DNA from: Patescibacteria group bacterium
GTDB lineage: Bacteria > Patescibacteriota > Patescibacteriia > UBA1558 > GWA2-36-10
Direction: 5' to 3'
DNA: 64,000 bases
Assembly (NCBI GenBank): GCA_018819405.1
Contig: JAHJQF010000001.1
Coordinates: 162,097-226,096 of the forward strand
Shown: in pieces, positions 15,871-50,441 of the stretch
How the letters are laid out: every line of letters begins with the position of its first letter
How positions within the stretch are numbered: position 1 is the stretch's first letter
The notes under the pieces: generated by a model
The model's input: the letters and a program-made list of their open reading frames with translations, nothing else
What the model was told of the DNA's origin: nothing
Databases searched by the model: none
Program-made: the position numbers and the translations under genes

Positions 15871-17451
15871 ATGACTAAATTAATGAAAAAAATAACCGCT
15901 TGGAAAATTGATTATCTATTTCTATTTATCCTAATGTCTGTCTATTACTCCTGGATACAATGGAATAATTTTATAGGGGATCCAGACGGATTTTATCACG
16001 CCAAACTGGCCATTTGGTTAAGACAGGGTCATTTTATACAATCCTTGCCTTGGATGCAATTTTCCACACTACGTGATTCATTTACTGACCATCATCTACT
16101 CTATCATATATTACTGGCTCCATTTACTTATATACCCAACCCCCTGGTGGGTGTAAAAATCGCCACGGTTGTTTTTGCCGTTTTGATGGTCATGACTTTT
16201 TATTGGCTACTAAAAAGAATGAAAATTATCTGGCCAATAGCTTTTGCTTTGGCCTTTCTTACTTTAAATGGACTTAACTTTAGGATATCTTTGGTCAAAG
16301 CAAATAGTCTATCGCTGCTCATAATATGGCTTTTAATCTATGCCCTGTTCAACAAAAAAATATGGTTGAGTATGCTTTTGAGTTGGCTCTTTGTCTGGTT
16401 ATATGGTGGCTGGCCTTTGGCTATCTTGATATTAATTACTTATATAGTAAGTGAAAAAATATACACGCGCATTCATAGTAATAGAGTCAAAATATTTTGG
16501 GATAAAGCTATTCATTTTTTTGAAACAGACAGTAAGCACAAAACCCTAAAAATATCTACAGCTCTACTGACTGGATTAGCCTTGGGTGTAATCATTAATC
16601 CATATTGGCCACAGAACCTTTACTTCTATTATCAACAAGTCATCCAGATCGGATTGATAAATCAGGGACAAAATTTTGTCGTGGGCGGAGAGTGGTATGG
16701 TACCAGTATAATGAATATCATATCATCAGCTCCTCATGTTTTTGTCCTAGCCTGCCTATCTTTTCTGACCTTATTTTTTAATGTAAAGAAAGCCTCGCGA
16801 CTTAGTTGGTTTAGTTTTATATTAGTTTTTGGTTTTATGATACTAACTATAAAATCTAGGCGATATGTAGAATATTATATGCCCTTTGCTTTACTATTTA
16901 CCGCTAGCTCAATTACTGACTTAAAAGATTTTATAAAATTGGACAAAGTTATATCTATCTGGGAAAAACTTGGTCTTAACTTAAAAATATATTTATCAGT
17001 AGTTGCCATGGTCTTTTTTACTATGGTAATGCCCTCTATCTATGACCGTATTTTAAATGTAAAATTATCCGATAGCTGGACAATGGACAAATTTTTGCCT
17101 GCCACCAACTGGCTAGCTGAGAATACCCCACCTGATTCTATAGTTTTTCACAGTGATTGGGATGAATGGCCTGTTTTATTCTATCACAATGACCACAATT
17201 ATTATTTGATAGGCCTAGACCCAACTTTTATGGAAAATTATAATAGCCAGCTACACAAAACATACCGAGATATTACAAACGGTGAAACTAAATTTTCTGT
17301 GGCCAAACAAATAAAAAATTATTTTGGTGCTAATTATATTTTTGTAGATAAAAACGGCCATCAGGCCTTTATTGATAATCTTTCCCGAGATAAAGATGTA
17401 GAGCTTATGTTCAACGATAACGATAGTTCAATCTATAAAATAAATCTATAA
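15871..17451 (+). CDS. Polytopic membrane protein, putative GT-C-fold glycosyltransferase (PMT/ArnT-like)
   Basis: More than 10 predicted TM helices, and a first-loop acidic motif 'GDPDGFYHAK' reminiscent of the GT-C DxD/DE motif. Confidence 0.35.
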   Translation: MTKLMKKITAWKIDYLFLFILMSVYYSWIQWNNFIGDPDGFYHAKLAIWLRQGHFIQSLPWMQFSTLRDSFTDHHLLYHILLAPFTYIPNPLVGVKIATVVFAVLMVMTFYWLLKRMKIIWPIAFALAFLTLNGLNFRISLVKANSLSLLIIWLLIYALFNKKIWLSMLLSWLFVWLYGGWPLAILILITYIVSEKIYTRIHSNRVKIFWDKAIHFFETDSKHKTLKISTALLTGLALGVIINPYWPQNLYFYYQQVIQIGLINQGQNFVVGGEWYGTSIMNIISSAPHVFVLACLSFLTLFFNVKKASRLSWFSFILVFGFMILTIKSRRYVEYYMPFALLFTASSITDLKDFIKLDKVISIWEKLGLNLKIYLSVVAMVFFTMVMPSIYDRILNVKLSDSWTMDKFLPATNWLAENTPPDSIVFHSDWDEWPVLFYHNDHNYYLIGLDPTFMENYNSQLHKTYRDITNGETKFSVAKQIKNYFGANYIFVDKNGHQAFIDNLSRDKDVELMFNDNDSSIYKINL

Positions 17452-19320
17452 ATCTAGGTATATTATTTTACTAAGTGCTTCGGTCTTCATATCAAAGAAG
17501 GACGACCTCTTTTTGTCTAGAACACTTACACCGTCAAAAGCAAATATCTGAAAAGATTTTATACGATCTTCTAGATAATAAAAAAATATCATCTCTCTGT
17601 CCTGCCATTGACTGTCCGGAAATAATCCATAGTCAATAGGCAGGTCATAGCTATCATCGTCTGTATAAAAACGTATTATATAATATTGTTTATTTAGATT
17701 TGTTGGTTTAAAAGTTAAGGCTAATTTCTTTCCCTTATCCTGAATAAATTCTGATTTTTTAAAAACTAATTGTCCCTGTGTTTTTGAGCTCTTTTGGCCT
17801 GTCTGATACAGTATTTTATTTTCTAGCTGAGGATTAATATCCCGTTTTTGCCACAATAATATATTGGCTTTTACTTCCACTAAATTATAATTTTCTAGCT
17901 TCTTTCGAAAAGGCTCTGGCAAATTTATCTCTACCTTATCTTTGGCCAATAGCCACTTGGAATCTTGCAAAATATCTATAGATTCTCCATAGTCAAGTAT
18001 TATATAATCCACCAAGGGCCAGTCAAAGCTATTTATATAAAATTGACTACGGCCGATATAAGCGTAGCTAAATGGATAGACTACCTGTCTTTGGCTTAGT
18101 TGGGGTAAAAGATTTAAACTAGCAATCACACTACTATCACGACCAACAGTCTTTAACATATCATAACGTACATTATTGATATTTTTATCAAAATTTGCAG
18201 CTAGGACATCTTTGACGGGAGATAAAAATATGGAAAAATAGACTACGGCTACCAAAAACATACCTACAAAAATATCTTTATTTTTATAAATAAAATTGCT
18301 AGCCAAAAAAATTTTTTTTTCCAAAAGTAACCTGACTGAAAAAATAAAAGCAATAAAAATGGCCGGCAAAAAAACCAAAACATAGTGTAGAGAATAGACT
18401 ATAGAATTAAAGCCTTGGGCTGCTAATACAAATTGAATCAGAGGCACAAAAGCCAACCAAAAATATTTTGGTTTTAAAATTGGAATAAAAAATAAGGTTA
18501 TCAATAAAACGAAAATGCTTCCTATATTTTGTATAGTAAAAATATGAGCAAAAACTTCTAGCAGCCAGGTCCAGGGATTTTTCCAGGCTTCTATTATCCA
18601 ACTATAATAAACTACAAACTTATACCCTTGGCCATCGGCTATATGACCAATAGCCAACATTGCTAAAATAAAATATAAAATTGGTACAAAAAATGCAGCC
18701 ATTTTCCACTTGAGACTACGCTTATCTAAAATAGCCAAAGGCAAAAATCCCAAAAGCATCAAGGCAATATCTTCTCTTACTAATAAAGATAAAATCATAA
18801 ACAATATAAACAGCCCAAAAAATTTCTTATAATAAAAATAAAAAGCAAAAAATATAAAAAATATTGCCAAAGGCAACATATGAAATTCAAAAAGATTAGC
18901 ATTATGGACAAAAGGATTGATGAGCCAAAGCAAAGATATAAATAAAGCTAAATGTTTCTTTCCTATAGCCAATTCGGCAATCAAATAAATTGGCCAGGCG
19001 CAAAGGGCAAGAATAAAACTCTGAATGACCAGTAATATTTCCGGACCGGGGTGTATGGCATAAAAAGGAATTAAAAAAATAATAGCCAAAGCAAAATGAT
19101 CTGCCAAGTAATTGTTTAGATTGATAGTCAGATCAAACCAACGCCCCTGTAAGGTATTAAAAAATACTTGGTTAAAAATCGCCAAATCAAAAACATTATA
19201 AGCAAAATTATAATATTTTTTTAAACTCAAAAAAGAGAATAATAAAATATATAAAATAATAAAACCAGTCAAAAAAATAGCTGCTTTGCTATCAATATAT
19301 CTTTTTAAAACTTTATACAT
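17446..19320 (-). CDS. DUF2079-like integral membrane protein with a C-terminal soluble domain
   Basis: 'NVFDLAIFNQVFFN' is typical of DUF2079; there are many TM helices. Confidence 0.4.
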   Translation of the reverse strand: MYKVLKRYIDSKAAIFLTGFIILYILLFSFLSLKKYYNFAYNVFDLAIFNQVFFNTLQGRWFDLTINLNNYLADHFALAIIFLIPFYAIHPGPEILLVIQSFILALCAWPIYLIAELAIGKKHLALFISLLWLINPFVHNANLFEFHMLPLAIFFIFFAFYFYYKKFFGLFILFMILSLLVREDIALMLLGFLPLAILDKRSLKWKMAAFFVPILYFILAMLAIGHIADGQGYKFVVYYSWIIEAWKNPWTWLLEVFAHIFTIQNIGSIFVLLITLFFIPILKPKYFWLAFVPLIQFVLAAQGFNSIVYSLHYVLVFLPAIFIAFIFSVRLLLEKKIFLASNFIYKNKDIFVGMFLVAVVYFSIFLSPVKDVLAANFDKNINNVRYDMLKTVGRDSSVIASLNLLPQLSQRQVVYPFSYAYIGRSQFYINSFDWPLVDYIILDYGESIDILQDSKWLLAKDKVEINLPEPFRKKLENYNLVEVKANILLWQKRDINPQLENKILYQTGQKSSKTQGQLVFKKSEFIQDKGKKLALTFKPTNLNKQYYIIRFYTDDDSYDLPIDYGLFPDSQWQDREMIFFYYLEDRIKSFQIFAFDGVSVLDKKRSSFFDMKTEALSKIIYLDL

Positions 19321-19459: not shown

Positions 19460-20230
19460 ATGAAAAAACTGCTGTTCTGCGCCATTTTGTTGGCGCTGGT
19501 GGCTGCCCTAGTCTCTGGCTGTACTACTCCCGGCAAAAAGTGGTACGGCTACGATCGCCAAAGCAAGGAATACATCCAGCTCGACAAGCAACCCTTTCAG
19601 CAGGCGGTTTACAACCTCTCCAGTTACACAATCTTCTTCACTCTGGAGGGCAAAGACGCCTGGTCTTGGACCGACCCCTACTACCAGATTGACCCTGGCT
19701 ACTCTGGATCTCTGGAAATACACCAGAGCTACACCAGCGACAAATTTCGCGCCTACTTCTGGTGCAAGGGTTGTCAGGATGTCCTGGGCACTACCGAAGA
19801 GATGATCGAGTTCGAGCTGCCCGGTCTGGCCACCATGCCGACCGATACACTGATTGTCACCGATGCCATGCTTATGGGCGATGCCCTCCAAGAGATGGCT
19901 GTCAAGAACATGACGGGTGTTGACTTGCACTACTACGACAATCGCGGCAACGACTTCGTGATAAAACATGGGCAAGCCTGGAGGCTACTGGTACTCTCCG
20001 GACCCTACAACTTCTGGGTTGAGCCTGTCATCAGACTCAAGTACGAAGCAGCCGCACCGGTAAAGCTGGGACAAGTAAGTTCCGACAAGCCGTTGATTAT
20101 TGACCGGCGACGCAATGCCTTGTGGACTGACCAGAACGGTCAACCCATTTATATCGGCGCCAAACGCATCATCGGTGCCGATGAAATTCCGCGCTTCTGG
20201 CGGGAAAGACGGCATTGGGCCGAGTACTAA
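19460..20230 (+). CDS. GC-rich (about 53% GC) lipoprotein of unknown function; compositionally foreign
   Basis: Signal peptide plus lipobox 'LVSGC'. Codon usage is biased to CTG/GGC/GCC, against roughly 32% GC in the flanks. The gene has its own promoter and terminator. Confidence 0.55.
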   Translation: MKKLLFCAILLALVAALVSGCTTPGKKWYGYDRQSKEYIQLDKQPFQQAVYNLSSYTIFFTLEGKDAWSWTDPYYQIDPGYSGSLEIHQSYTSDKFRAYFWCKGCQDVLGTTEEMIEFELPGLATMPTDTLIVTDAMLMGDALQEMAVKNMTGVDLHYYDNRGNDFVIKHGQAWRLLVLSGPYNFWVEPVIRLKYEAAAPVKLGQVSSDKPLIIDRRRNALWTDQNGQPIYIGAKRIIGADEIPRFWRERRHWAEY

Positions 20231-20233
20231 AAA

Positions 20234-20280
20234 CCCCCGCCTTGTTCTGCAACACAGAACAAGGCGGGGGAATTTTTTTA
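20234..20280. terminator. Bidirectional intrinsic terminator ('cccccgccttgttctg' / 'cagaacaaggcggggg' stem, T tracts on both sides)
   Basis: Perfect 16-bp stem, followed by 'aattttttta' on the plus strand and a T run on the minus strand. It lies between convergent genes. Confidence 0.7.
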
Positions 20281-20295
20281 TATAAATATTTTACA

Positions 20296-20691
20296 CTAAC
20301 CAGTAGCTTCACCACCACCGGTACCAGTACCAGCATTATCAGCTAGAGCTCTCAAAACAAAACTGGCAATTGCATAAGCCATGACAACTATTACTAGACC
20401 AATCACTGAGTTTTTTATAATGCTTTTAGCTTCATCAACTTGTTGGGAGTTTCCTTGGGAAGTCATCCACTTAAATCCTCCCCAAATAATCAAAACCGTA
20501 AAAAGCATGCCCAAAAGAGAAAGTAACGCGTTTATAATTCTGGCTATCATTTGTTGAGGGCTGACACCTTTTATAAGATTGCTGGCATTAGCCGCTTCTT
20601 CCAATCCGGTTTGAGCGGCATAATCAGAAGCTGATACTGCCAAAGGCAGTAATGCAACTAATAAGAAAATTGTATTTTTTATAGATTTCAT
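20296..20691 (-). CDS. TrbC/VirB2-like (T4SS-type) pilin paralog 1, with a Gly-rich C-terminal tail. An ATG start at 20691 is preferred over the track's TTG at 20697.
   Basis: Signal peptide and two TM helices flanking the conserved 'GGFKWMTSQGNSQQVDEAK' motif, plus an 'NAGTGTGGGEATG' tail. Confidence 0.5.
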   Translation of the reverse strand: MKSIKNTIFLLVALLPLAVSASDYAAQTGLEEAANASNLIKGVSPQQMIARIINALLSLLGMLFTVLIIWGGFKWMTSQGNSQQVDEAKSIIKNSVIGLVIVVMAYAIASFVLRALADNAGTGTGGGEATG

Positions 20692-20757
20692 ATGCAATAT
20701 AAGCTTTAGTAGGTCATCATGATAAATGACCCACTATAGTCTAGACTACATAGGTCG

Positions 20758-21108
20758 TTATATGGTCTCATTATAAAGTGACTGCAATACGAATCTAGAT
20801 ATCGCATAAGCGGTCAAAATTATAACCAAACCGACAATACCCGCACCGATAAGCTTTTTAGCTTCGTCAACTTTTTCAGTATTACCCTGAGAAGTCATCC
20901 ATTTGAATCCACCCAACAAAATAATCAAAGTAGCTAAAATGCCCAAAAAACCTAGCACAATATTTACTACTCCACCAATAGTATCTCTTAAGGGTTTTGA
21001 ACCCAAAGCAATATTGGTAGAGGTAAAATCATTAATACCCCATTGATCATCTGAAGCTGATGCCACTGCTGGGAAAAATGCTAGTAAAGAAATCAAGAAT
21101 TTTTTCAT
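20758..21108 (-). CDS. TrbC/VirB2-like pilin paralog 2
   Basis: Signal peptide, 'GGFKWMTSQGNTEKVDEAKK' and a second TM helix. Strong SD ('aaagggggtgaaaaaATG'). Confidence 0.5.
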   Translation of the reverse strand: MKKFLISLLAFFPAVASASDDQWGINDFTSTNIALGSKPLRDTIGGVVNIVLGFLGILATLIILLGGFKWMTSQGNTEKVDEAKKLIGAGIVGLVIILTAYAISRFVLQSLYNETI

Positions 21109-21192
21109 TTTTTCACCCCCTTTCTATTTTAGAAAAATATTACTTAAAGTATATACTAAAATAGCTTTTTTTTCAACGATTTGTCAATACTT

Positions 21193-21513
21193 TTAAGTAG
21201 TGCCCCGTAAAATGTCAAACACAAAGTTTATGACAATATAACTTAAAAATATTACTACCAAACCTAATATGGCCCAAACAATACTATCCTTGCCTTTTTT
21301 TACTCTCTCAGAGTTACCAGATGAAGTCATCCACAAAATGCCACCCCAGACTAGAAAAAATAAAGCCAAAGCACCCGATATACCAAGTAGGCCTCTGATC
21401 ATTTGTCCAGCTAATTCTGGAATACTGTCAGCACTTAATGGATTTGGTACTTCTACTGCTGCTTTAGCTGATAGTGGTAATAGTAACAACGAAAATAAAA
21501 CTATTTTTTTCAT
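21193..21513 (-). CDS. TrbC/VirB2-like pilin paralog 3
   Basis: Signal peptide and 'WGGILWMTSSGNSERVKKGKD'. Confidence 0.5.
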   Translation of the reverse strand: MKKIVLFSLLLLPLSAKAAVEVPNPLSADSIPELAGQMIRGLLGISGALALFFLVWGGILWMTSSGNSERVKKGKDSIVWAILGLVVIFLSYIVINFVFDILRGTT

Positions 21514-21554
21514 ATCTAATTTTTAATATTTGTTGAATATATAAAATACTAAGG

Positions 21555-22190
21555 TTAGTATATTTTAGAACCATCGGTAGCACAAACCTGTTCACCTGGA
21601 CAGCATGACGTACAACCAGAGACAGCATAAGCACCATTATAATCTTGCGGATTATAATTTTCTGGCAAACAAGCTGTTTTATAATTATTTTTTAGACCAG
21701 CATAAACACATTGTGATATACAAATTTCATTATAAACTACTAACTCTGCTTGCGAAAACGTCCCCGAGCACACCATTAAACTCCCTGGCTCTCCACATGG
21801 AGATCCAGGCCCCTTTCCTTGGCAAGAAATTGTAGTGATACGATATGGTTCTTTAACATTTAAAACCTGATTAACAAAAAAATCCAAAATTAGATAGCCG
21901 CCAAAAGCAACAATAATAGCAAAAATAGTGTTTGTCATTATATCTTTGCCTTTTTTTACTCTCTCAGCATTACCGGATGATATCAACCATTGAACACCTC
22001 CATAAACAAAATAGACCAAAGCTACCGCTCCCATAGCCCCCAACATCAACTTGATCAACAAAAGAAAACCTGTAGCAATATCTTCAAGGCCACAATTTCC
22101 ATATTCTATACATCCTAATCCATCCAAAAATCCCGCCCTGGCTATTAGAGGACTAGTTAAAAAAATTAAGCTAACAAAAAATTTTATCAT
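21555..22190 (-). CDS. TrbC/VirB2-like pilin paralog 4 with a Cys-rich C-terminal extension of about 110 aa
   Basis: 'YGGVQWLISSGNAERVKKGKD' core, followed by a domain with 14 Cys. Its start codon overlaps the upstream SBP stop (ATGA). Confidence 0.5.
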   Translation of the reverse strand: MIKFFVSLIFLTSPLIARAGFLDGLGCIEYGNCGLEDIATGFLLLIKLMLGAMGAVALVYFVYGGVQWLISSGNAERVKKGKDIMTNTIFAIIVAFGGYLILDFFVNQVLNVKEPYRITTISCQGKGPGSPCGEPGSLMVCSGTFSQAELVVYNEICISQCVYAGLKNNYKTACLPENYNPQDYNGAYAVSGCTSCCPGEQVCATDGSKIY

Positions 22191-23560
22191 TGCGGTTCTT
22201 TATATGTTTGATTTATCTGACCAACCAATAAACCTAGGCTTGCGTTTTTATCATCCAAAACATATTCTCCTGATAAAAGCTTGTCAATAAAATCTCCTAA
22301 GTATTGTTCAGCCAGATTAATATTGTAACCTCTATACCAAGTATCAGCAGTCAAAACCTGAGAAGCAAATATTGAAGTATCATAATTAGCAATCTGCTTG
22401 TCAATCAAAGAACGTAAAGCTGTTGGCTTTTTATTTTCAGTTAAATATTTTGATACCAAATCCTCTGAAGCTGTTGTCTGGACAAAATTCCAGGCTGCAT
22501 CCTGATTTTTTGATTTTTTGGCAACCACATTAACCCAAAAATTAGCATAATATTTGGTAATTTCTGCGCCTCTAGTTTGAGGAAAGTTTGTAATACCCCA
22601 ATCAAATTGAGTCTTTCTACGCCTTAATTCATCAGCATGATAACTATAGCCAAAAAAATAAGCTAGTTTGCCACCAGCAAACATCTCAAAGGCATTTTCC
22701 AAATCACTATTCCAGCTATAACTAGCTTTGCCCGGCTTGGCAAAATCTGTATAAAAAGCAAAGGCTTGAGCAAGTCTCTGTGCAGAGTCTTTATCGTCTA
22801 AAGGTGAAAAGGCCGTCTCTGATTTAGCGTTTACCCCATTTTGCATCATGATAGAAGAAAAAATATCAAAAAACCTAGGTATATTATCAGTACCACCAAG
22901 AGCAACTGCTGATTGAATTATTTGATTGCCCTCTGTTGCTTTAGTCAGCTTTGGAGTCTGATCCACTAAATCAAAAAAGTCAGTAATTGGTTCCGCTATA
23001 CCTGCTTTGGTAATCATGTCTAGATTATAAAAAGTAACTAGCGTATCTAATGAATACGGCAAACCATATATTTTTTCATCAACTATTATATTGTCATAAA
23101 CTGCTGGAACATACTTAATCTTTATATCTTGAGGAGACAAGCCGGCAAATTGTCGCATCACTATCACAGTTTCTGATTTTATAGAGCCCTGTATTTCATA
23201 TATTGGAATTTTGTGAGCTGAGGGCATAACTACTATCCTATGTTGATAAGCTTTTATCCAATTGGCTGGAATCGCAAAAATATCCGGTCCTCTGTCATCA
23301 GCCCAAGCTTCCAAAAGCTCGCGTTCGTATTCTTCATAACGAAAACGTCTATAATTTACTTTTACAGTCGGATGGGTTTTTTCATAATCTGCAATCAATG
23401 TTTTCAATTGAGCCTCTGTATCCCAAACACCCCAGTATTCCAAAGTAACCGGCTGGTAAAGCTCCTTATCTGATCGAAAAGGATTCCACTTGCAACCAAA
23501 GCCACTGTTTAAAACAAGGGTAAATAATAATAAAATTGTAAAAATTCTAAACCTTCTCAT
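22187..23560 (-). CDS. Extracellular solute-binding lipoprotein (SBP_bac_1 family, sugar-type), orphan with no permease or ATPase adjacent
   Basis: Lipobox 'NSGFGC'; 'GPDIFAIPANWIKAY' and 'YGLPYSLDTLVTFYNLDM' are typical of family-1 SBPs; 457 aa. Confidence 0.65.
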   Translation of the reverse strand: MRRFRIFTILLLFTLVLNSGFGCKWNPFRSDKELYQPVTLEYWGVWDTEAQLKTLIADYEKTHPTVKVNYRRFRYEEYERELLEAWADDRGPDIFAIPANWIKAYQHRIVVMPSAHKIPIYEIQGSIKSETVIVMRQFAGLSPQDIKIKYVPAVYDNIIVDEKIYGLPYSLDTLVTFYNLDMITKAGIAEPITDFFDLVDQTPKLTKATEGNQIIQSAVALGGTDNIPRFFDIFSSIMMQNGVNAKSETAFSPLDDKDSAQRLAQAFAFYTDFAKPGKASYSWNSDLENAFEMFAGGKLAYFFGYSYHADELRRRKTQFDWGITNFPQTRGAEITKYYANFWVNVVAKKSKNQDAAWNFVQTTASEDLVSKYLTENKKPTALRSLIDKQIANYDTSIFASQVLTADTWYRGYNINLAEQYLGDFIDKLLSGEYVLDDKNASLGLLVGQINQTYKEPQ

Positions 23561-24429
23561 TTTACTTTTTTAAAATAATCTTTCAAAAATTCTCTGAGCT
23601 CTTTTCTTTCCATGGCGTACTCCAGTGTGGCGCGCAATAAATTCAAAGGATCCCCAGTAGTCAGCCACTCTCCATCTTTTATTTCTTTGGCATAAAACTT
23701 TCCGCCGGATTTTATATAATTTCTGATAGCATCAACTATCCATAGTTCGTTGCCTTTTCCCAATCGTGTTTTTTGTAAAACATCGACTATGTCCTGATTC
23801 AAAATCATACGACCAAAATCAGCCAGATTAGAAGGAGCATCTTTGATAGATGGTTTTTCTATAATGTCATTTAGCTGCATTGTCTTTGTGTTTTTCAAAC
23901 TGACAATACCATATCTATCCACCTGATCACGCGGCACTTCTTGAACCCCAATCATCAAATGTCCGGTTTTGTTGTAATCATCTACCATTTGCTTGGCAAA
24001 AGGTATTTTTGATTTTACTAAATCATCACCCCAGACGTACATAAAAGGCTCATCATCAACCAAGCTAGCTGCCGAAAGAACTGGTGTGCCATTACCATAT
24101 GGCCCTTTTTGTCTTATATAAACAAAATTGGCCATTTCTGAGATTTTTTTAACTGCCGCTAGCTTATCTTTTTTTCCGGCTTTGGCCAGTTCATTTTCTA
24201 GAGCCCAAGAATGATCAAAATGATCCTCAAGAGGTTTTTTGTCCCACTTGGTCACAAGTATAATGTCCTCTATGCCAGCTGCCACCAATTCTTCAACTAC
24301 TAGCTGAATAACCGGCTTATCTACTATTGGCAACATTTCCTTGGGCATGGTTTTGGTAGCCGGCAAAAGCCTAGTACCTGATCCAGCTACAGCAACTACA
24401 GCTTTTCGGATTTTTTGATTTTTTTTCAT
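23557..24429 (-). CDS. galU: UTP--glucose-1-phosphate uridylyltransferase
   Basis: 'AVAGSGTRLLPATKTMPKEMLPIVDKPVIQ' is the GalU signature; 290 aa. Confidence 0.85.
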   Translation of the reverse strand: MKKNQKIRKAVVAVAGSGTRLLPATKTMPKEMLPIVDKPVIQLVVEELVAAGIEDIILVTKWDKKPLEDHFDHSWALENELAKAGKKDKLAAVKKISEMANFVYIRQKGPYGNGTPVLSAASLVDDEPFMYVWGDDLVKSKIPFAKQMVDDYNKTGHLMIGVQEVPRDQVDRYGIVSLKNTKTMQLNDIIEKPSIKDAPSNLADFGRMILNQDIVDVLQKTRLGKGNELWIVDAIRNYIKSGGKFYAKEIKDGEWLTTGDPLNLLRATLEYAMERKELREFLKDYFKKVK

Positions 24430-24551
24430 CCCGTTATTATTCTAAAATATTTACAACTATCTTATTTTTTTGTTCCCCGCAAAAAATCGTGAATTTCTGA
24501 CGGGATTAATGCTTTTATTATACTAAAATTTGACCTAAATGTAAATTGTTT

Positions 24552-25247
24552 TTACTTTAAAATAAGGCCTTTGTGTTCAGTAATATGAGCGGAAAAATCC
24601 ATAACTATCTTCAAAAATACCAAAATAATAACTGCTGACATACCAAAACCAAGCGCCGTGGCAAAAAATCCCCCAAAAATAATAGTCAAATGCATAGTTA
24701 CTATTCTTTTATATGGGGCAAACATCTGTTTATTTATGGTGGTCTTTAGATATTCTTGTTTTTTTATAAAATTATAAATATAAGATATGGCGTGACTCAA
24801 AAATAAAAAAGATAAAGATATAAATAGAGTTTTTAAATAAGAAAATACCGTGATAAAAGCCACGTCTGTATATGTCGTCTTTGGCAAATCGGGCTTGAAG
24901 AAAGTAACAATAAAAAATAAATGCCCAAACATAAACATAGAATAATGAATAATAAAAAAAACAATAAAAAATATCTTAGTCGGCTCAGATATTTTATCTG
25001 TTTTACTCTGCCTATTTTTCTTGGTCAAACCAATATCTTTTATATGTTGCATTTTCAAAACATTAAAAAATCCTACGACTGTACTTTCTAGCCAATACAA
25101 AATCAATATTGTGAAAATATCCCAACCAAAAAACAAAACTCCAAAAATAGGAATTAAGTTTACTAAAAACAGAGACAAAACTGTCGGATAAGCCAAATAA
25201 CTAAAATATTTTTTCAAATCCGCCATCTTTTTTATTTTTATAAACAA
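24552..25247 (-). CDS. hypothetical polytopic membrane protein
   Basis: An ORF with about 6 TM helices. It overlaps the upstream gene by roughly 45 nt, so the real start may be the internal Met. Confidence 0.3.
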   Translation of the reverse strand: MFIKIKKMADLKKYFSYLAYPTVLSLFLVNLIPIFGVLFFGWDIFTILILYWLESTVVGFFNVLKMQHIKDIGLTKKNRQSKTDKISEPTKIFFIVFFIIHYSMFMFGHLFFIVTFFKPDLPKTTYTDVAFITVFSYLKTLFISLSFLFLSHAISYIYNFIKKQEYLKTTINKQMFAPYKRIVTMHLTIIFGGFFATALGFGMSAVIILVFLKIVMDFSAHITEHKGLILK

Positions 25248-26502
25248 ATAAACTAAAAGCTAATAGTATAAAAAATAAGATGCTTAAATCATTTTTAAAA
25301 TAGGGTACATCTACCAAACCGTGTATGAACCAAGTAAGCCAGGCCAAGATTAGCGGCCAAGCAAAAATATTTTTATCAGCCAAAATCTTTTTTAAAATAT
25401 AATATATATAAGCCAACAATCCTAAAAATCCAAATAAACCAAGGAGGCCCATTTCTGTCCAAAAATTTAAAAATATATTATGAGGATAAAGATATATTTC
25501 TATCCAATCTATACGGTGATAATTATTCATAGCCACTTGATAGCCATTTAGACCACTACCTAAAACAAAATTATCTTTTAGCATAGCTAGAGTCTCTCGC
25601 CATTGCCAGCTCCTGATTTCCAATGAGCTAATGTCCAGTCCTTTACCTGGTGAAAAAAGTTGATAAAAACTATTTGGTAAAAATAATATAATTACTGATA
25701 GAGCTAGACAAGCTAGTAAGATACCCCATTTTCTTGTTTTTTTGGCTAATATAAGCCATATAAATATAGCTGCTAGCATAGCCAGCATTGCCCCCTCGCT
25801 GACCGCAAAATAAGATAAACTAACTCCCAAAATTCCCAACAATAAATAATGCCAATTGCGCCCCTTATTTTTTATCATTAGCCAGAGAGATAAGAAGAAT
25901 ATTGAGATAGGAGCGCTAATAAGTGCTAAGGCATTAGGATAAGAAAAAACGGCGGTCAGTCTTTTTGCGTGTGGGAAATTATATGCGGCAATATAGTTCC
26001 AGTCTGTAAAATTTTGATACATAGCCACTACAAACAACCAAGCCAATAGTAAGCCTAGCCCATTTATAATAATTTTTATATCTTCTTTATCCTTGACAGT
26101 ATAGATAAAAACCAAAAAAAACATAATTGGCTCCAAAAAATATGCCCGCCAGAGTCCAAGAGCACTATACGTAGGATTTACCAACCAAGCTAAGACGCTA
26201 GCTAAAATCCAAACAGATAAAAGTAGCCTAAGTTTATAAGGAACCTGATTTTCGGATTTCCTTTTTAAGAAAAAATTTATCTTTTTATATCTTTTCTCTT
26301 TTATCAACCAAATTATAAATAACAAAACAATCATTAATTCCAAAAAAGTAGTTGGCATTCCCAAAATATTGAAGCGCCACAAATAACTAGGTAAAAGAGT
26401 TATTATTGCTGCTATTGCCCAGATAGTTTTTTTATAAGCAGTGAAAATAAAAACCAAAAGCGAAGCAGTGAAAATAAAATTTAGTAGCAAATCAATGCTC
26501 AT
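25201..26502 (-). CDS. O-antigen ligase/polymerase-like (Wzy_C-type) membrane protein
   Basis: About 10-12 TM helices with a large periplasmic loop, in a polysaccharide locus next to wzx. Confidence 0.45.
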   Translation of the reverse strand: MSIDLLLNFIFTASLLVFIFTAYKKTIWAIAAIITLLPSYLWRFNILGMPTTFLELMIVLLFIIWLIKEKRYKKINFFLKRKSENQVPYKLRLLLSVWILASVLAWLVNPTYSALGLWRAYFLEPIMFFLVFIYTVKDKEDIKIIINGLGLLLAWLFVVAMYQNFTDWNYIAAYNFPHAKRLTAVFSYPNALALISAPISIFFLSLWLMIKNKGRNWHYLLLGILGVSLSYFAVSEGAMLAMLAAIFIWLILAKKTRKWGILLACLALSVIILFLPNSFYQLFSPGKGLDISSLEIRSWQWRETLAMLKDNFVLGSGLNGYQVAMNNYHRIDWIEIYLYPHNIFLNFWTEMGLLGLFGFLGLLAYIYYILKKILADKNIFAWPLILAWLTWFIHGLVDVPYFKNDLSILFFILLAFSLFVYKNKKDGGFEKIF

Positions 26503-27927
26503 TTATTTTTTATTAAATATTTCTTTAATAAGCGACTGATTGATTGCTTTAGTAAAAAATAAAACCAAGATATAAATTAAACCGGCAAGGATTGTCACTA
26601 GTATAATATTTTTATCCTCTAGCAAGCTAGCTACAAAAGAAGCAATGACTGCTGCTATGATACTTTTTATTAATACTTTGAAATTTAAATTAAGCGAAAC
26701 ATTCTTTTTTACTACCACAAAAGCAAAGACGACTATCAAAATCTCCACCAACAAAGTCATATACGCTGCTCCCCAATAAGAAAAACGGGGGATAAGGGTA
26801 AAATAACCCAAAATTCCTATGCCAGCTGTAATCAAAAAATATTTGACCATCTGCTTTTGCAAATTAAGAGCTACTACTAAATAAGTAAATAATGTTCCAA
26901 AAAATATAGCAGCTGTCGCTATTATCAAAATATTTAATATTGGCCCAGATTTGACAAATTCTTGCCCCGCCAACAGAGTCATCAATGGGCTGCTAATAAG
27001 CCAGGTGACAAAAATCATAGCCACACTAATAATACTAAAAAAATCAAAACTATGTTGTAGACTATTTTTTAATTTTTCTTTATTCTGAGTCACCCAAGCG
27101 GCTGTAAAAATGGGCAATATAAGACTCATAAACATATGGGGAAAAGTAGATAAAACTTCCAAAACTCTATAAGGCGCTCCATATATAGCTACATCTTCTG
27201 GGCTGTGATAAGCTGATAAAATTAAAGTATCAGCCTTGAAATAAACCAAATTCAATACCACTGTAATAGCTAGTGGCCAAGTACGATGAAATACCTGCTT
27301 CCAATATACAAAATCCCAAGCCAGTTGTAGACTCACATATTTTTTCAAAAATACCAAAAGTAAAATAAAAGCCGTGCCTTGTGTAATCACATTAAAAAAT
27401 AATATTTGATTGAGGTTGCCGGAAGTTTTAAAAAGATAAATCAAGGCTAAAGCGTATAGTGTTTTATTGACCAAATCTGTAATAGCTACTTTTGGCATAG
27501 CCAAATTTTTGGAAAAAACCGCGGTCAAAGTAGAAATTATACTTTGGAAAAAATAACAAAACATAAAAATAGTTACACCTATTTTTACTTCTTTAGTATA
27601 AGGGAAAAATTGAACAACCAAGGGTATCAAAATCAAAACCAGAACAGCCGAAACTATTCTGATAGTAAAAATATTATTTACAATTCTATTCTCATCTTTA
27701 CGTTCTTTGGCTGCCGAAATTTCCCTGAGCAAAGTAAGGTAGAGTCCCAGATCCACCAAAATCATAAACATCTGAACAAAAGCAAAAGCAGTGGTATAAT
27801 ATCCAAAACCAGCTTGACCCAATATCCTAGTGATAAGTGCCAAGGACAAAACACCTATAAAAATATTTAAAGCCCTGATAATAACCTGCCACAGGGTATT
27901 TTGAAAAATCTTATTAGCAATCGACAT
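26503..27927 (-). CDS. wzx: Polysaccharide/oligosaccharide flippase (Wzx/MOP superfamily)
   Basis: The N-terminus 'NTLWQVIIRALNIFIGVLSLALITRILGQAGFGYYTTAFAF' is typical of PF01943; about 12-14 TM helices. Confidence 0.6.
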   Translation of the reverse strand: MSIANKIFQNTLWQVIIRALNIFIGVLSLALITRILGQAGFGYYTTAFAFVQMFMILVDLGLYLTLLREISAAKERKDENRIVNNIFTIRIVSAVLVLILIPLVVQFFPYTKEVKIGVTIFMFCYFFQSIISTLTAVFSKNLAMPKVAITDLVNKTLYALALIYLFKTSGNLNQILFFNVITQGTAFILLLVFLKKYVSLQLAWDFVYWKQVFHRTWPLAITVVLNLVYFKADTLILSAYHSPEDVAIYGAPYRVLEVLSTFPHMFMSLILPIFTAAWVTQNKEKLKNSLQHSFDFFSIISVAMIFVTWLISSPLMTLLAGQEFVKSGPILNILIIATAAIFFGTLFTYLVVALNLQKQMVKYFLITAGIGILGYFTLIPRFSYWGAAYMTLLVEILIVVFAFVVVKKNVSLNLNFKVLIKSIIAAVIASFVASLLEDKNIILVTILAGLIYILVLFFTKAINQSLIKEIFNKK

Positions 27928-40070: not shown

Positions 40071-40493
40071 CTAGGAGCCACTGGTGAGCTCGACAATCTG
40101 CTGACTGTCAGCTCCGTAGCCGGTGATGACATATCCGATGTTGATGTTCCCTTGCTTGATGGGCTGGTAAAAGACCTGACCCGGACCGGGAACCTCGTCG
40201 GTCATGATCGCGTCACGCGGCTCGGTCACTTGGTTAGTGAAGGCGTTTTCCAGCAGTTGCTCAGCGGGCAGCAAATACAGGAAATAGACCACCTTCTCGG
40301 GGTAGCGACCGTCGTTTCTGACGACGTAGTCCTCGACGGCCAGCTGCACGGTGTGGCAGACGCCCTTGGTCTTGGCCTCCATGGCCCGGTTCTGCATGCT
40401 GATGAAGTTGGGGATGGCGATGGCCGCCAGGAGACCGAGGATGACCACAACGATCATCAGCTCGATGAGAGTAAAGCCCTTGCGATTGAACAT
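40071..40493 (-). CDS. Type IV pilin / pseudopilin (prepilin-peptidase-processed), GC-rich and compositionally foreign
   Basis: 'MFNRKG|FTLIELMIVVVILGLLAAIAIPNF' is a class III signal with Glu+5. GC is about 58%. It has an AGGAGG SD, and its promoter TTGACA-N17-TAAGAT is at 40601-40630. Confidence 0.75.
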   Translation of the reverse strand: MFNRKGFTLIELMIVVVILGLLAAIAIPNFISMQNRAMEAKTKGVCHTVQLAVEDYVVRNDGRYPEKVVYFLYLLPAEQLLENAFTNQVTEPRDAIMTDEVPGPGQVFYQPIKQGNINIGYVITGYGADSQQIVELTSGS

Positions 40494-44268: not shown

Positions 44269-44405
44269 AATAATCTTATTCTACCAGACTTAGCCCTCTT
44301 TTTCAATTGACAAAAAATATCTTATATATTAAATTATTTTTGCAACTTGCTTTACTACTATACTTCTGCCCAGTGAGTCTGTACCCTCACAGAAAGGAAG
44401 GATCC

Positions 44406-45185
44406 ATGATCCACTATGAACTACGCAACCCTCTACTTGGTCGCTGGTTTGTAACCACTCTTATCCTCGCCCTAGTCACCACCCTCATCCCAACACTGCA
44501 TTTCCAACCAACAAGTAGCTATTCGCTGATTCTGCCCCAGATAACCCCCGACTGGCTCATCTGGCCACTCAATCTGGCGCTCTTTGTCGCCACGCTGGTC
44601 TGGCTGATCACCAACCGCTTCAGCGTCTGGATTGCCGGCGCCTACAACCACTGGCTCTACCATCTGCTCTGGCTGGCTATGGCCAAGGTTGTTTGGCTGC
44701 TCTTTGGCCCGGTGCTGTCGCTTAATACCCTGATGATCACTAGTTTTGTGGTCGTATTCACTCTCATCACCTACCTAGCTATCAGGAAAATCGGCCAAGA
44801 CATCTACTGGCACTTGCCAACTGTCTTTGTCGTCTACCTGATGGCTCTGCGCCTGATGCATGATGTCAGTCTACTTGGCTGGGGCAAGCCGCTCACTCTG
44901 CTAAGCAAGCAGACCATCCTGCTTTGGACTTGCTTGAAGGTAGTCAGCCTCCCCATCCTCGGTCTCCTGGCCTTGGTCTACATTGCCAGCGGCCTTTACT
45001 TGTTCGGGCAAAAAATCAAAAACAGCTGGGACAACAATCTGGATGAAAGCGAGGAAATAATCGGCCTTTTCATGTTGCTGATTGGCATCATGATTTTCCT
45101 AATCATCTTTGAACTCCCTTACCAAATCAAAGAACACCTCATCAAGCCTACTTGGCATTGGCTCTTTCCCGACTACTCCTACTAG
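44406..45185 (+). CDS. GC-rich (about 52% GC) polytopic membrane protein, unknown function; compositionally foreign. The start is reassigned to 44406; the track ORF at 44307 begins inside the promoter.
   Basis: SD 'aaaggaagg' 6 nt before ATG 44406. Six to eight TM helices. The promoter TTGACA is at 44307-44312, and the terminator at 45198-45245. Confidence 0.5.
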   Translation: MIHYELRNPLLGRWFVTTLILALVTTLIPTLHFQPTSSYSLILPQITPDWLIWPLNLALFVATLVWLITNRFSVWIAGAYNHWLYHLLWLAMAKVVWLLFGPVLSLNTLMITSFVVVFTLITYLAIRKIGQDIYWHLPTVFVVYLMALRLMHDVSLLGWGKPLTLLSKQTILLWTCLKVVSLPILGLLALVYIASGLYLFGQKIKNSWDNNLDESEEIIGLFMLLIGIMIFLIIFELPYQIKEHLIKPTWHWLFPDYSY

Positions 45186-46690: not shown

Positions 46691-47791
46691 TTATTGCCTA
46701 ATAGGCATTACCAAATAAATATATTTGTCATTACCAACTGGCTGAAGTAGCCCTGGTGATGAATTATTGTTTATCTTCATATTTACTTCACTGGTACCCA
46801 GCTGATTAAGGCCATCTAGTAAATAGCGGTAGTTAAAGACAATATCATTTTCTTCTCCTTTTATTTCTGCTGAGACATTGGCAATTGAAGTACCAGTATT
46901 TGATGAAGCAGTAGCGATAATTATTTTTTGAGACTTGGCATCAAAACTAAGTCTTATATCATTAATACCTTGTTTGCAAAACAGAGCCACTGATTTTATA
47001 GCTGGGACAAGCTTACTAATATTGCACTTGGCTTCAGTTTTGAATTCAGCTGGAATAATTTGACTATAATCTGGGTATTTACCATCTATTACACGCGATA
47101 TGAGCTCTACTCCATCAAGCTCAAACATTATCTGATTTTCATTAAAAAATATTTTGAGTTTTTTGTCCTGCTGGTCATTTAGAATCCTAGCTAATTCTTG
47201 TAAAGTTTTGAGAGGAATTATTAGGTTTTTGTTTTCCCCGTTTTCTACTGGGATTTTCTTTTCAGCCAAACGGTAGCTATCAGTAGCTGCTAGAGTAAGT
47301 TCATTTTTTTGAAAGTTGAAGTTTACAGCATTTATTTCAATCCTTGAGACATCTAGTGACGCGGCTAGTAGCACTTGAGAAAGACTTTTTTTCAAGTCAG
47401 CGATTGAGATTTCTACCATGTTATGTTTTTCTATTTCTGGTATCAGAGGAAAGTCTTCAGCAAGCATGCCTTTGATAGAGGTTTCTTGGTTGGCACTTTT
47501 TATTTCTAGGTTATCTCCGTCCAAGTTGATTTCAATATTTTCTCTGGGAAGAAAAGAAACAAAGTTGTGAATCAATTTAGCATCTACTGTAAACTCGCCT
47601 GACTTTTCTATTTTTCCTCTAATTGATGCTTTGATACCAATTTCCAAATCAGTAGTGATCAAAGTGAGATCGTTTTTTTCTGCTTTCAATAATACATTAT
47701 TCAAAATTGGCAAGTTGGAACTTTTGTTGGCAATGTTTGATACCAAAGATAATCCTTTATTCAAATTTTCCTGAGTGCAAACAATTTTCAT
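46691..47791 (-). CDS. dnaN: DNA polymerase III beta sliding clamp
   Basis: Three-domain clamp of 366 aa, immediately downstream of dnaA. Confidence 0.93.
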   Translation of the reverse strand: MKIVCTQENLNKGLSLVSNIANKSSNLPILNNVLLKAEKNDLTLITTDLEIGIKASIRGKIEKSGEFTVDAKLIHNFVSFLPRENIEINLDGDNLEIKSANQETSIKGMLAEDFPLIPEIEKHNMVEISIADLKKSLSQVLLAASLDVSRIEINAVNFNFQKNELTLAATDSYRLAEKKIPVENGENKNLIIPLKTLQELARILNDQQDKKLKIFFNENQIMFELDGVELISRVIDGKYPDYSQIIPAEFKTEAKCNISKLVPAIKSVALFCKQGINDIRLSFDAKSQKIIIATASSNTGTSIANVSAEIKGEENDIVFNYRYLLDGLNQLGTSEVNMKINNNSSPGLLQPVGNDKYIYLVMPIRQ

Positions 47792-48088
47792 ATTATTATT
47801 GTTTAATTATTTATATATAAAATTTAGTAGTAGTTATAGGCACGGTGGATATGTTTATAAGTGGAGAAAAATTTTGGTAAAGCCTAGGAAAATTTGTTTT
47901 TATTTTGGATTTTAGCTGGTGGACAATCAGTTCACAAAAATGTTGATAAGAGGTTTTTTTGTGAATAAGTTTTGAGACTTTATTTTGATCGGTGGATAAG
48001 CTGGTGTTTATACACAGTTAGTTATAAAACTTTACACAAGGTTATAAAAAACTTATAAACAATTTATTCACGCAATTTTTGTGAATCT
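47792..48088. promoter_or_regulatory. oriC-type region: a cluster of DnaA-box-like 9-mers between dnaA and dnaN, plus an A/T-rich unwinding tract
   Basis: 'ggtggataa' at 47991-47999, 'tgtgaataa' at 47961-47969, 'tgttgataa' at 47941-47949, 'ggtggacaa' at 47918-47926, 'ttattcacg' at 48065-48073 and 'tgtgaatct' at 48081-48089. Two perfect tandem 'tgtggataa' boxes lie upstream of dnaA at 49573-49591. Confidence 0.6.
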
Positions 48089-49471: not shown

Positions 49472-49572
49472 ATTTTTAGCTTTGTTTTAGCCCGAAAACT
49501 TAGTCTATATTACTATAGCACAAATAAAACTTTACCAAAATACAGACTTTAGTTGAAAAAATGTGAACAGCT

Positions 49573-49591
49573 TGTGGATAATTGTGGATAA
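49573..49591. promoter_or_regulatory. Two perfect tandem DnaA boxes ('tgtggataa' twice, TTATCCACA on the complement) upstream of dnaA
   Basis: Seen in sequence, in a 10-bp register. This is the dnaA autoregulation/oriC flank. Confidence 0.65.
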
Positions 49592-49679
49592 CTTTCAAGA
49601 CTCTGTTAGTCTTGATAAATAGGGTGGAATATGTTATTGTTCAGACGTTATAATTATTAAAGATAGCTAGGTATTTTAT

Positions 49680-49817
49680 ATGACCAAAAGAACCTATCAG
49701 CCAAAAACCAGAAAAAGAGCCAAGACTCATGGTTTTCGTGCCCGCATGTCTAGCAAAAGCGGTCGCCAAGTATTGTCTAGCCGCAGAAAAAAAGGCAGAA
49801 AAAGCCTGGCTGTTTAA
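49680..49817 (+). CDS. rpmH: 50S ribosomal protein L34 (not in the ORF track because it is under 60 aa)
   Basis: Translates to '[45 protein letters not shown]', the canonical L34. It lies just upstream of rnpA. Confidence 0.88.
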
Positions 49818-49841
49818 TTTACCTAATATTAGGCAAAAACT

Positions 49842-50222
49842 ATGTTGCCTAAAATTTTTAGACTTCATCAAGATAAGGAAATAAAAGACTTGGTTAAGAA
49901 TGGCCAAAGCTTTTTTTTGCCGCAACTAGTGATTAAGTATAAAAAAAATCAAGAGGGGCCTAGTCGTTTTGCTTTTGTGGTTTCTACTAAGGTTGATAAG
50001 CGGGCAGTAATCAGAAATAGATTGCAAAGACAAATGCGTGAAATTGTCCGGATAGCGCTACCAAAGCTTAAGACAGGGTATGTTGTGCTAATAATAGCCA
50101 AAAAATCTGCCTTGGAGTTGGATTTTAGCACTTTGGGTCGGCAACTAGACTTTGCTTTTAAAAAAATAAGCCTTTATAATCAAGGTCAAAATGATAAAAA
50201 AACTAGTTTTAAAACTAATTAG
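49842..50222 (+). CDS. rnpA: Ribonuclease P protein component
   Basis: 'FAFVVSTKVDKRAVIRNRLQRQMRE' is the RnpA RNR motif region. Confidence 0.85.
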   Translation: MLPKIFRLHQDKEIKDLVKNGQSFFLPQLVIKYKKNQEGPSRFAFVVSTKVDKRAVIRNRLQRQMREIVRIALPKLKTGYVVLIIAKKSALELDFSTLGRQLDFAFKKISLYNQGQNDKKTSFKTN

Positions 50223-50427: not shown

Positions 50428-50441
50428 TTAAAATAACTTTC

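Follow-up and report, generated by a model that had tools for sequence, protein, structure and literature searches.

The window analyzed here is a 64,000-nucleotide stretch (positions 162,097 to 226,096 of contig JAHJQF010000001.1, assembly GCA_018819405.1) of a 1.04-Mb Patescibacteria metagenome-assembled genome. It carries four tandem genes, termed P4, P3, P2, and P1 in gene order, whose products belong to a family of type IV secretion system (T4SS) pilins, and the first of these overlaps the end of a gene for a carbohydrate-type solute-binding protein (SBP). The linkage between such an SBP gene and a pilin gene is conserved across the genomes that we sampled, and the pilin next to the SBP belongs to a class with its own predicted extracellular motif. 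The interpretation we favor, to which we give somewhat better than an even chance, is that the locus encodes the structural subunits of a patescibacterial T4SS-type (VirB2-like) pilus, or of a related surface filament, along with a dedicated extracellular partner.

The initial annotation of this DNA, which was made from the letters alone, held that the combination of an SBP with several pilin variants in one operon had not been described. This is correct for the SBP-pilin linkage, since no mention of an SBP alongside these pilins was found in PMC12102498, PMC10633639, a 2025 T4SS review, or full-text literature searches. It is not correct for the array itself, which is of a published kind and is partly annotated at NCBI. 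Specifically, P3 and P4 are identical to MBU1202588.1 and MBU1202589.1, both of which already bear the name "pilin". Relative to the literature searched, the SBP-pilin pairing, the SBP-adjacent pilin class, and the fixed order of four pilin classes are new.

Pairing of a sugar-type SBP gene with a pilin gene

The SBP gene (22187-23560, minus strand) is intact and encodes a 457-aa lipoprotein of the CUT1, or MalE-like, carbohydrate type. It matches PF01547 (SBP_bac_1) with 71.5 bits (cut-off 26; E 1.6e-19), and a search of the PDB with its profile retrieved the oligosaccharide SBPs 4r9f, 3uor, 4qrz, 4g68, and 5ysb with E values of 7e-21 to 1e-17. The nearest solved relatives bind manno-, xylo-, or beta-1,2-gluco-oligosaccharides, maltose/acarbose, or sulfoquinovosyl glycerol. 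Compared with 3uor, the window protein has an insertion of ~20 residues (roughly 118-140). Among 16 sequences down to 41% identity there are 68 invariant columns; lipobox residues G20, F21, and C23 are invariant, as are many aromatic residues, and the latter would, if indirectly, be in keeping with a carbohydrate ligand. The gene tables of the window and of the annotated related loci L001, L003, L008, and L079 list no permease or ATPase of an ATP-binding cassette (ABC) transporter (ABC_tran, BPD_transp). Within these neighborhoods, the findings bear out the initial description of an orphan sugar-type SBP lipoprotein.

Relatives of the SBP comprise 1,057 database proteins at E ≤ 1e-5, and those that are named among the 120 matches listed all derive from lineages of the candidate phyla radiation (CPR)/Patescibacteria or from unclassified bacteria. 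A scan of one genome per GTDB species yielded 507 loci with an SBP relative, and the best 80 of these 507, whose SBPs are 38-68% identical to that of the window, were analyzed. They are labeled mainly as Komeilibacteria, Parcubacteria, Falkowbacteria, or unclassified Patescibacteria, with many titles being uninformative or implausible. Pilin genes were located with a hidden Markov model (HMM) that was built from the four window proteins and iterated over all open reading frames (ORFs) of the loci. In 77 of the 80 loci, a pilin gene lies directly 3′ of the SBP gene on the same strand, and usually the two genes overlap or the pilin gene starts within 30 nt. The contigs of two of the remaining three loci (L040 and L067) end at the SBP gene, which leaves L078 as the sole true exception. 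The conserved SBP-pilin linkage is real across the sampled genomes.

Two types of gene context were encountered. Type I loci, which are found in the window and its closer relatives and in a few loci at ~40% SBP identity, have the order (wzx-Wzy_C-DUF6498)-galU-SBP followed by three to eight or more pilin genes, and often then by a convergent lipoprotein gene and a DUF2079 gene. The galU gene precedes the SBP gene in 41 related loci, and most type I loci, though not every one, retain the genes for Wzx, Wzy_C, and DUF6498 upstream of it with a shared orientation. Type II loci, labeled mainly as Falkowbacteria, have the order SMC-(ComM)-SBP-one pilin-RodZ-like HTH_25 protein-methyltransferase, with a separate array of about six pilin genes located 1-8 kb further on. 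The SBP-pilin pair is the sole element common to the two contexts, and the type II genomes suggest that the bulk array need not stay with the SBP-linked pilin. The separate six-pilin array is present in L044, L052, L058, L062, L065, L069, L070, L073, L076, L079, L082, and L084, and that of L079 is a second array located at 16308-18834. Between the type II SBP-pilin pair and the array are housekeeping genes, namely those for the RodZ-like protein, the methyltransferase, a UPF0102 protein, a GT2 glycosyltransferase, and a conserved protein of ~530 aa that belongs to no family.

The pilin class adjacent to the SBP is distinctive. In the window it is represented by P4 (21555-22190, minus strand; 211 aa), whose mature N-terminus, GFLDGLGCIEYGNCGLED, forms a Cys-loop directly before helix 1. 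A Cys-x4-7-Cys pair is present before helix 1 in 57 of 85 SBP-adjacent pilins versus none of 163 other pilins, and the broader motif [GS]x[CY]x[LVI]x[DE] is found in 63 of 83 versus 4 of 233. A C-terminal extension is also usual for the P4 class of type I loci, in which the whole proteins contain 10-24 Cys residues. The C-terminal Cys-rich domain that had been predicted for P4 does exist, but it spans ~100 aa and holds 10 of the 12 Cys residues of P4, compared with the ~110 aa and 14 Cys first reported. This domain has no Pfam match and no PDB sequence match, and AlphaFold2 (AF2) models it with moderate confidence (pLDDT mostly 53-81) as beta-strands and one short helix.

The three distant P4-class homologues P0151-P0153 (260-357 aa, one named Magasanikbacteria) carry a Cys-rich domain at the N-terminal side, between the signal peptide and the hairpin, and they keep the Cys-loop just before helix 1. 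Among P4 homologues, an extra Cys-rich display domain is therefore attached at either end, both of which are predicted to face outward. In VirB2-type pilins (F and T pili), the two termini lie outside, in the membrane as well as in the pilus. If the VirB2 topology holds, the P4 Cys-loop, either type of Cys-rich extension, and the Gly/Ser/Thr-rich tail of P1 would be extracellular. Disulfides are expected in such a location, where the lipoprotein SBP also resides.

The four pilin classes

All four proteins exceed the gathering cut-off of 26.6 bits for PF18895 (T4SS_pilin), with scores of 49.5 (P1), 38.5 (P2), 53.2 (P3), and 28.1 bits (P4). Their membership in this family is established, the matches being far beyond chance, and homologues carry a precomputed PF18895 assignment. 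The scores also rule out the possibility that these are generic small membrane proteins. As read from the sequences and their alignment, each pilin begins with a signal peptide whose last residues are AxA or VxA, after which a polar loop joins two hydrophobic helices. The hairpin is confidently modeled by AF2 for P3 (helices 31-62 and 68-105, pLDDT 90-98) and P4 (helices 35-70 and 75-109, pLDDT 83-93). Thus, ORFs, alignment, and models uphold the initial claim of four consecutive small genes encoding proteins with a cleavable signal peptide and two helices flanking a loop. The loop reads GG(F/I/V)xW(M/L)(T/I)SxGNxx(x)V(D/K)(E/K)(A/G)K in the window and GGxxWMTSxGNxExVKKGK in the family-wide alignment, in which the mature N-terminus before helix 1 is variable.

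Connections to classical T4SS pilins are more distant. We assembled a VirB2/TrbC reference profile from seven annotated genes in plasmid records, each followed by virB3; six of the records are typed as conjugative MPF_T and one is without typing. Alignment of this profile with that of the CPR pilins by hhalign gave 63 colinear columns over the hairpin (E 1.3e-4, probability 53%), with the CPR loop being ~7 residues longer than that of VirB2. Against the TrbC family (PF04956), P1 and P2 score 23.1 and 24.0 bits (E ~5e-5 to 9e-5), which is below the gathering cut-off of 27.9 bits, and P1-P3 score 35.7-39.1 bits against NF045849, a family of pilin-like proteins from a Mycoplasma integrative and conjugative element (ICE), just under its 40-bit cut-off. 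The kinship of the four pilins to classical VirB2/TrbC proteins therefore appears remote but consistent. Of the two Pfam families named in the initial annotation, PF18895 is matched by four of the four proteins above cut-off and PF04956 by none, and the general assignment as T4SS-type pilins is sustained.

The array continues after P4 with P3 (21193-21513; 106 aa), P2 (20758-21108; 116 aa), and P1 (20296-20697; 133 aa), all on the minus strand. The true start of P1 is likely the ATG at 20691, which gives 131 aa. In ~35 type I species, the genes that follow the SBP gene are of the P4, P3, P2, and P1 types in that order, and each pilin resembles its positional orthologues more than any of the paralogues from the same genome. 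Median identities of orthologues to the window proteins are 61% for P2, 58% for P3 (range 49-88%), 50% for P1, and 43% for P4, and the window paralogues share 27-47% identity with each other as proteins. At the DNA level, paralogues are at most 72% identical, and this over only ~100 nt of the loop region.

The motifs GGFKWMTSQGN and VDEAK are indeed common to P1 and P2, as the initial annotation observed, but the recent duplication that it proposed to explain them is contradicted by the positional orthologues in ~35 species and by the low DNA identity. The two proteins are only 43-47% identical, and their common core represents, for the largest part, loop conservation throughout the family. 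Some lineages do have extra copies of the P2 or P1 type, such as the three P1-type copies in L020 and L037.

The classes also differ in their C-termini. P3 is short and has no tail, and P2 proteins end in ETI, ETV, or ATT. The P1 class carries a Gly/Ser/Thr/Pro-rich tail of 10-15 residues in many species. The Gly-rich tail reported earlier for P1 (NAGTGTGGGEATG in the window) is therefore a recurring feature of its orthologues. Reshaping of this tail by the neighboring GC-rich island was considered and ruled out, given that the tail is conserved in the P1 class of many species and that the island stops at a shared terminator.

Several features set the P2 class apart. It is the best conserved of the four, and a Shine-Dalgarno-like motif precedes 32 of 42 P2-class genes (76%) versus 3 of 36 P3-class, 0 of 32 P4-class, and 0 of 37 P1-class genes. 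In the window, the P3-P2 intergenic region (21113-21187, minus strand) contains the only clear Shine-Dalgarno sequence of the array, GGGGGTGA (21120-21113), and promoter-like hexamers precede P2 alone, forming two overlapping promoter-like sites at 21187-21148. Because P2 is the class that regularly has a Shine-Dalgarno-like site, and because it is the most conserved, it is probably the abundant major subunit. We infer that P3, P1, and P4 would then be minor or specialized subunits.

Locus organization and genome context

The SBP gene is preceded by a galU-like gene for a UTP-glucose-1-phosphate uridylyltransferase (23557-24429, minus strand; 290 aa; PF00483, 104 bits). ATGA stop/start overlaps of galU with the SBP gene (23557-23560) and of the SBP gene with P4 (22187-22190) can be read directly in the sequence, as noted initially, and the gaps between the four pilin genes are 41, 84, and 60 nt. 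A promoter-like site, TTTACA-17-TATAAT, that matches the consensus at 11 of 12 positions is present at 24517-24545 on the minus strand, within the 122-nt gap between the DUF6498 gene and galU. At the other end, a bidirectional intrinsic terminator (20229-20275, or 20234-20270 by a narrower placement), composed of a GC-rich stem of 16-17 bp with T-runs on both strands, closes both the pilin unit and the convergent lipoprotein gene. The genes galU-SBP-P4-P3-P2-P1 are likely one transcription unit that starts at the predicted promoter before galU.

Upstream, in the same orientation, are genes for a DUF6498 membrane protein (24552-25247; 231 aa), a Wzy_C protein of the O-antigen ligase/O-oligosaccharyltransferase family (25201-26502; 433 aa), and a Wzx-type flippase (26503-27927; 474 aa), all on the minus strand and assigned by Pfam. 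These correspond to the membrane protein, O-antigen-ligase-like gene, and wzx reported earlier, and the precomputed annotation of a syntenic contig agrees with the Pfam assignments of the locus genes. The array had been placed at the end of a surface-polysaccharide operon. The shared orientation fits that placement, but because a promoter-like site precedes galU, the galU-SBP-pilin unit may be transcribed apart from wzx and Wzy_C, with read-through being possible and not required.

The convergent gene beyond the terminator (19460-20230, plus strand) encodes a 256-aa lipoprotein with the lipobox LVSGC and belongs to no Pfam or NCBIfam family. Its GC content is 0.54 and its GC content at third codon positions (GC3) is 0.68, versus a GC3 of 0.25-0.29 in its neighbors and 36% GC for the window. 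A lipoprotein ORF of 203-257 aa occupies the same position in ~25 related species (for example, L001 11285-12055, L003 9962-10621, and L030 13774-14433, as well as ~20 other loci) and is GC-enriched relative to its own locus in all of them (for example, 0.59 vs 0.37 and 0.36 vs 0.26). The sequences diverge rapidly, and a library of 1.84 billion proteins holds 11 representatives. The lipoprotein may belong to the pilin module. Because the GC offset persists across species, a single recent transfer of the gene is argued against; codon selection, repeated transfer, or a recombination hot spot with GC-biased gene conversion may instead account for the offset.

Similar compositions occur elsewhere in the window. 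A type IV pilin with an N_methyl motif (40071-40493, minus strand) has a GC content of 0.57 and a GC3 of 0.81, a multi-pass membrane protein without a family (44340-45185, plus strand) has a GC3 of 0.65 over the longer ORF 44307-45185, and a Peptidase_C39_2 lipoprotein (61143-61826, plus strand) has a GC3 of 0.49. The corresponding values for RpoB/C, RecA, DnaA, and the four T4SS-type pilins are 0.25-0.34. A subset of surface-protein genes therefore has a distinct codon composition, given this contrast with housekeeping and pilin genes.

Other large ORFs of the window encode PBP1, TyrRS, GalT, two glycogen synthases, GH57, YebC, RuvC, DUF2079, and RecA, and further ORFs encode FtsK, RpoB/C, a MurC-like ligase, DnaA/N, and YidC. 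Together with wzx, Wzy_C, and galU, the genes for GalT, the two glycogen synthases, and GH57 mark this chromosomal region as one given over to the metabolism of sugars and envelope glycans. Two large multi-pass membrane proteins flank the locus on its downstream side (15871-17451, plus strand, and 17446-19320, minus strand). One is the DUF2079 protein, and the other, of 526 aa, has no family and by eye resembles GT-C-type glycosyltransferases. PADLOC found no defense-system match, and Rfam identified a single tRNA in the window.

The genes dnaN, dnaA, rnpA, yidD, and yidC are located at 46691-51185, and the cumulative GC skew reaches its minimum in the 46-48 kb bin, which suggests that the replication origin is close to the dnaA cluster. 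The pilin array is ~27 kb from dnaA, and if the origin is indeed there, the strand of the pilin genes would fit transcription co-directional with replication. An origin-proximal placement has also been reported for T4SS genes in Patescibacteria (PMC12102498), and the window array is similarly placed.

Interpretation and relation to known systems

The interpretation favored here begins with four predicted Sec-exported helical-hairpin pilins encoded between a promoter-like site before galU and a strong terminator. The SBP, with its ATGA overlap, is translationally coupled to P4. P2 would be the major subunit of a filament in which P3, P1, and P4 serve as minor or specialized subunits. It is then reasonable to propose that the SBP, a carbohydrate-type protein anchored in the membrane, interacts extracellularly with the P4-class pilin, by binding or by cooperation, and couples the recognition of a glycan, perhaps a host-surface oligosaccharide, to a pilus function such as attachment or the gating of exchange. 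The most plausible role for the SBP, as far as can be inferred, is that of a glycan receptor or adhesin, and a role as an assembly factor is less plausible. Assembly of the pilus would depend on a VirB4/VirB6-type machine that, by analogy with the published genomes, is presumably encoded elsewhere in the 1.04-Mb genome, the accessions of which are absent from the supplements of PMC12102498. In a bolder form of this proposal, which strikes us as doubtful, a carbohydrate ABC receptor would have lost its transporter and been put to the service of a pilus derived from a T4SS. The SBP and P4 might then constitute a substrate- or host-recognition head, and the pilus might be a glycan-addressed attachment organelle or even a permease-independent, SBP-dependent conduit for uptake from a host.

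Several observations weigh against a T4SS-type filament with the SBP as its partner. None of the pilins reaches the TrbC cut-off, and P3 and P4 have no match to that family. A Foldseek search of the PDB returned no significant match to a solved T4SS pilin (the best relevant entry was 8dfu, E 2.3), and the pilin profile found VirB2 (8cue) among PDB sequences at an E value of only 6.6, together with spurious matches to designed "Pizza" proteins. Simple helical hairpins match many folds weakly, and PDB structure searches are uninformative for this reason. Genes for VirB4, VirB3, VirB6, and VirD4 are absent from the window, in which every large ORF is otherwise assigned. The initial annotation had likewise seen no VirB4, VirD4, or VirB6, and this extends to the readable flanks, 10 kb past the low-coordinate end and ~4 kb past the high-coordinate end. 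The annotated loci L001, L003, L008, and L079 also have no T4SS machinery genes. Furthermore, neighborhoods are syntenic within each clade, such that the independent SBP-pilin contexts are few, perhaps two or three, and any inference from the pairing is correspondingly limited. Four type I genomes have no P4 class, with P3 following the SBP directly, and the SBP-pilin link is one at the level of genes.

Alternatively, the SBP could serve a conventional sugar ABC importer as its receptor, the permease and ATPase being encoded elsewhere. It would have no physical or functional link to the pilins, and its adjacency to their genes would reflect inherited gene order and co-expression of envelope genes in a streamlined genome. 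This explanation is possible, though clearly less probable than not. It accommodates the typical CUT1 character of the SBP by Pfam and PDB profile search, as well as the extensive synteny within clades, where YebC, RuvC, glgA, and other genes are conserved nearby with no functional link; operons of unrelated genes are common in small genomes. It is weakened because the pair persists at ~40% SBP identity after all other neighbors have changed from galU/Wzy_C to SMC/ComM/RodZ-like genes, because in most loci the SBP and pilin genes either overlap or have only a few bases between them, and because the pilin beside the SBP forms a dedicated class that carries a predicted extracellular motif not shared by most other pilins. 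The missing permease and ATPase in the gene tables of the window and the four annotated related loci also count against it. A different possibility, which we regard as improbable, is that the PF18895 proteins form a two-helix membrane partner of the SBP in a new SBP-dependent transporter or sensor, with neither a T4SS nor a filament. The missing T4SS machinery, the single pilin that accompanies the SBP in type II loci, and the inability of the fold search to discriminate among helical hairpins would all be compatible with such a partner, as would a weak match of P1 to DctQ (E 5e-4). However, the DctQ score of 20.3 bits is below the cut-off of 28.3 and probably reflects hydrophobic composition. 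By comparison, all four proteins pass the PF18895 cut-off, their alignment with VirB2/TrbC is colinear, and pilins have just this topology of a cleavable signal peptide and then a hairpin. Moreover, this family is found beside virB4 in >1,000 Patescibacteria assemblies and in the essential T4SS cluster of S. epibionticum (PMC12102498).

The remaining two explanations concern the array and its upstream neighbors. Antigenic or host-range variation has been suggested for such pilin arrays (PMC12102498), in which case the window genes would be interchangeable and recently duplicated variants. The identical loop motif of P1 and P2, the duplication of the P1 and P2 classes in some lineages, and the concentration of variability in the mature N-terminal segments, which are predicted to be surface exposed, are in keeping with this suggestion. 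Nevertheless, the order of classes is fixed in ~35 species, orthologues (median 43-61%) surpass same-genome paralogues (27-47%), and DNA identity between paralogues is at most 72% over ~100 nt. Tail, Cys-loop, and ribosome-binding site also vary between the classes, an argument for distinct roles. The comparison of orthologues largely refutes a variant pool as far as the four core classes are concerned, and this is the least probable of the explanations considered. Slightly more credible, yet still quite unlikely, is a pilin glycosylation module in which GalU provides UDP-glucose, Wzx flips a lipid-linked glycan, Wzy_C acts as a PglL/TfpO-like O-oligosaccharyltransferase that decorates the P1 tail, and the SBP deals with the glycan or with a precursor of it. 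In Neisseria and Pseudomonas, type IV pilins are glycosylated by enzymes of the Wzy_C family. Most type I loci have the three genes directly upstream with a shared orientation, and P1-class tails are rich in Gly, Ser, and Thr. Yet Wzy_C and Wzx are missing upstream in L008, L024, L027, L032, L035, L039, and all type II loci, where the SBP-pilin pair persists, and no feature sets the window Wzy_C apart from an O-antigen ligase or polymerase. We also know of no role for SBPs in glycosylation. With a linkage that is not universal, O-glycosylation of the pilins might reasonably be kept as a side hypothesis.

If a T4SS-type filament with a dedicated SBP partner is the correct interpretation, then the pairing provides a handle on the role of the pilus, in that it offers two proteins to test, oligosaccharides as candidate ligands, and a probable major subunit. 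The fixed order of four classes argues that such arrays are sets of subunits with different roles rather than pools of antigenic variants, and this view changes how arrays would be annotated across hundreds of CPR genomes.

The pilin array as such is already known. Quinonero-Coronel et al. (2025) searched 3,035 Patescibacteria genomes with PF04956 and PF18895, reporting VirB2-like pilins in 1,948 VirB4-bearing assemblies, a pilin near virB4 in 1,135 of them, and 441 arrays of 2-11 pilin genes in 383 assemblies (PMC12102498). A six-pilin array is essential in Southlakia epibionticum (Wang et al. 2023; PMC10633639), where it lies inside an essential T4SS cluster (PMC12102498), and the T4SS with its pilin array is essential for epibiotic growth in this one species tested (PMC10633639). 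A 2024 perspective called the role of the T4SS in Saccharibacteria "completely unknown" (PMC11665869). The window array falls within the published definition of 2-11 PF04956/PF18895 genes in tandem or with one non-pilin gene between (PMC12102498). Like the arrays so defined, it is chromosomal, consists of PF18895 proteins with weak PF04956 similarity, and has no relaxase nearby; its paralogue identities of 27-47% compare with a published mean of 25% and maximum of 54% (PMC12102498). Unlike them, it adjoins no virB4 or other T4SS gene, it is headed by galU and a translationally coupled SBP lipoprotein, and its paralogues are four fixed-order classes that include an SBP-adjacent class with a Cys-loop and Cys-rich domain. 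The four-class order, the SBP/galU head, and the Cys-rich SBP-adjacent class are not described in PMC12102498 or PMC10633639.

More distant systems offer further comparisons. The window pilins share with VirB2 of Agrobacterium and TrbC of IncP plasmids a signal peptide, a hydrophobic two-helix hairpin, a short polar loop, and a colinear profile alignment. They differ in falling under the PF04956 cut-off and in having a loop that is ~7 residues longer and contains TSxGNxExVKKGK. In addition, each of the seven VirB2/TrbC genes retrieved is followed by virB3, whereas the window pilins have no adjacent VirB1, VirB3, or VirB4. The Patescibacteria that carry the window-type pilins are generally regarded as monoderm, with a single membrane (PMC12857230). 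The NF045849 (Mbov_0395) family is comparable in that it, too, is a small pilin-like conjugal-transfer membrane protein from a host lacking an outer membrane. Its members are ICE-borne, single-copy, and encoded next to VirB4/VirD4 homologues, in contrast to the chromosomal four-class array with an SBP in the window, of which P1-P3 score just under the cut-off of that family.

Finally, there are precedents for SBPs in connection with T4SS-related functions. PrgZ of pCF10 and TraC of pAD1, orphan solute-binding lipoproteins of Gram-positive conjugation loci, are peptide-binding SBPs of the OppA type that feed the host Opp permease. ChvE is a sugar-binding protein that modulates vir induction in Agrobacterium; it is encoded in a gguABC transporter operon and acts via the VirA kinase. 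If the window SBP is a sensor or receptor, as hypothesized above, then it would resemble these proteins as an SBP fold that serves a T4SS-related system outside its own ABC operon. It differs from them in being of the CUT1 sugar type and in being translationally coupled to a pilin gene.

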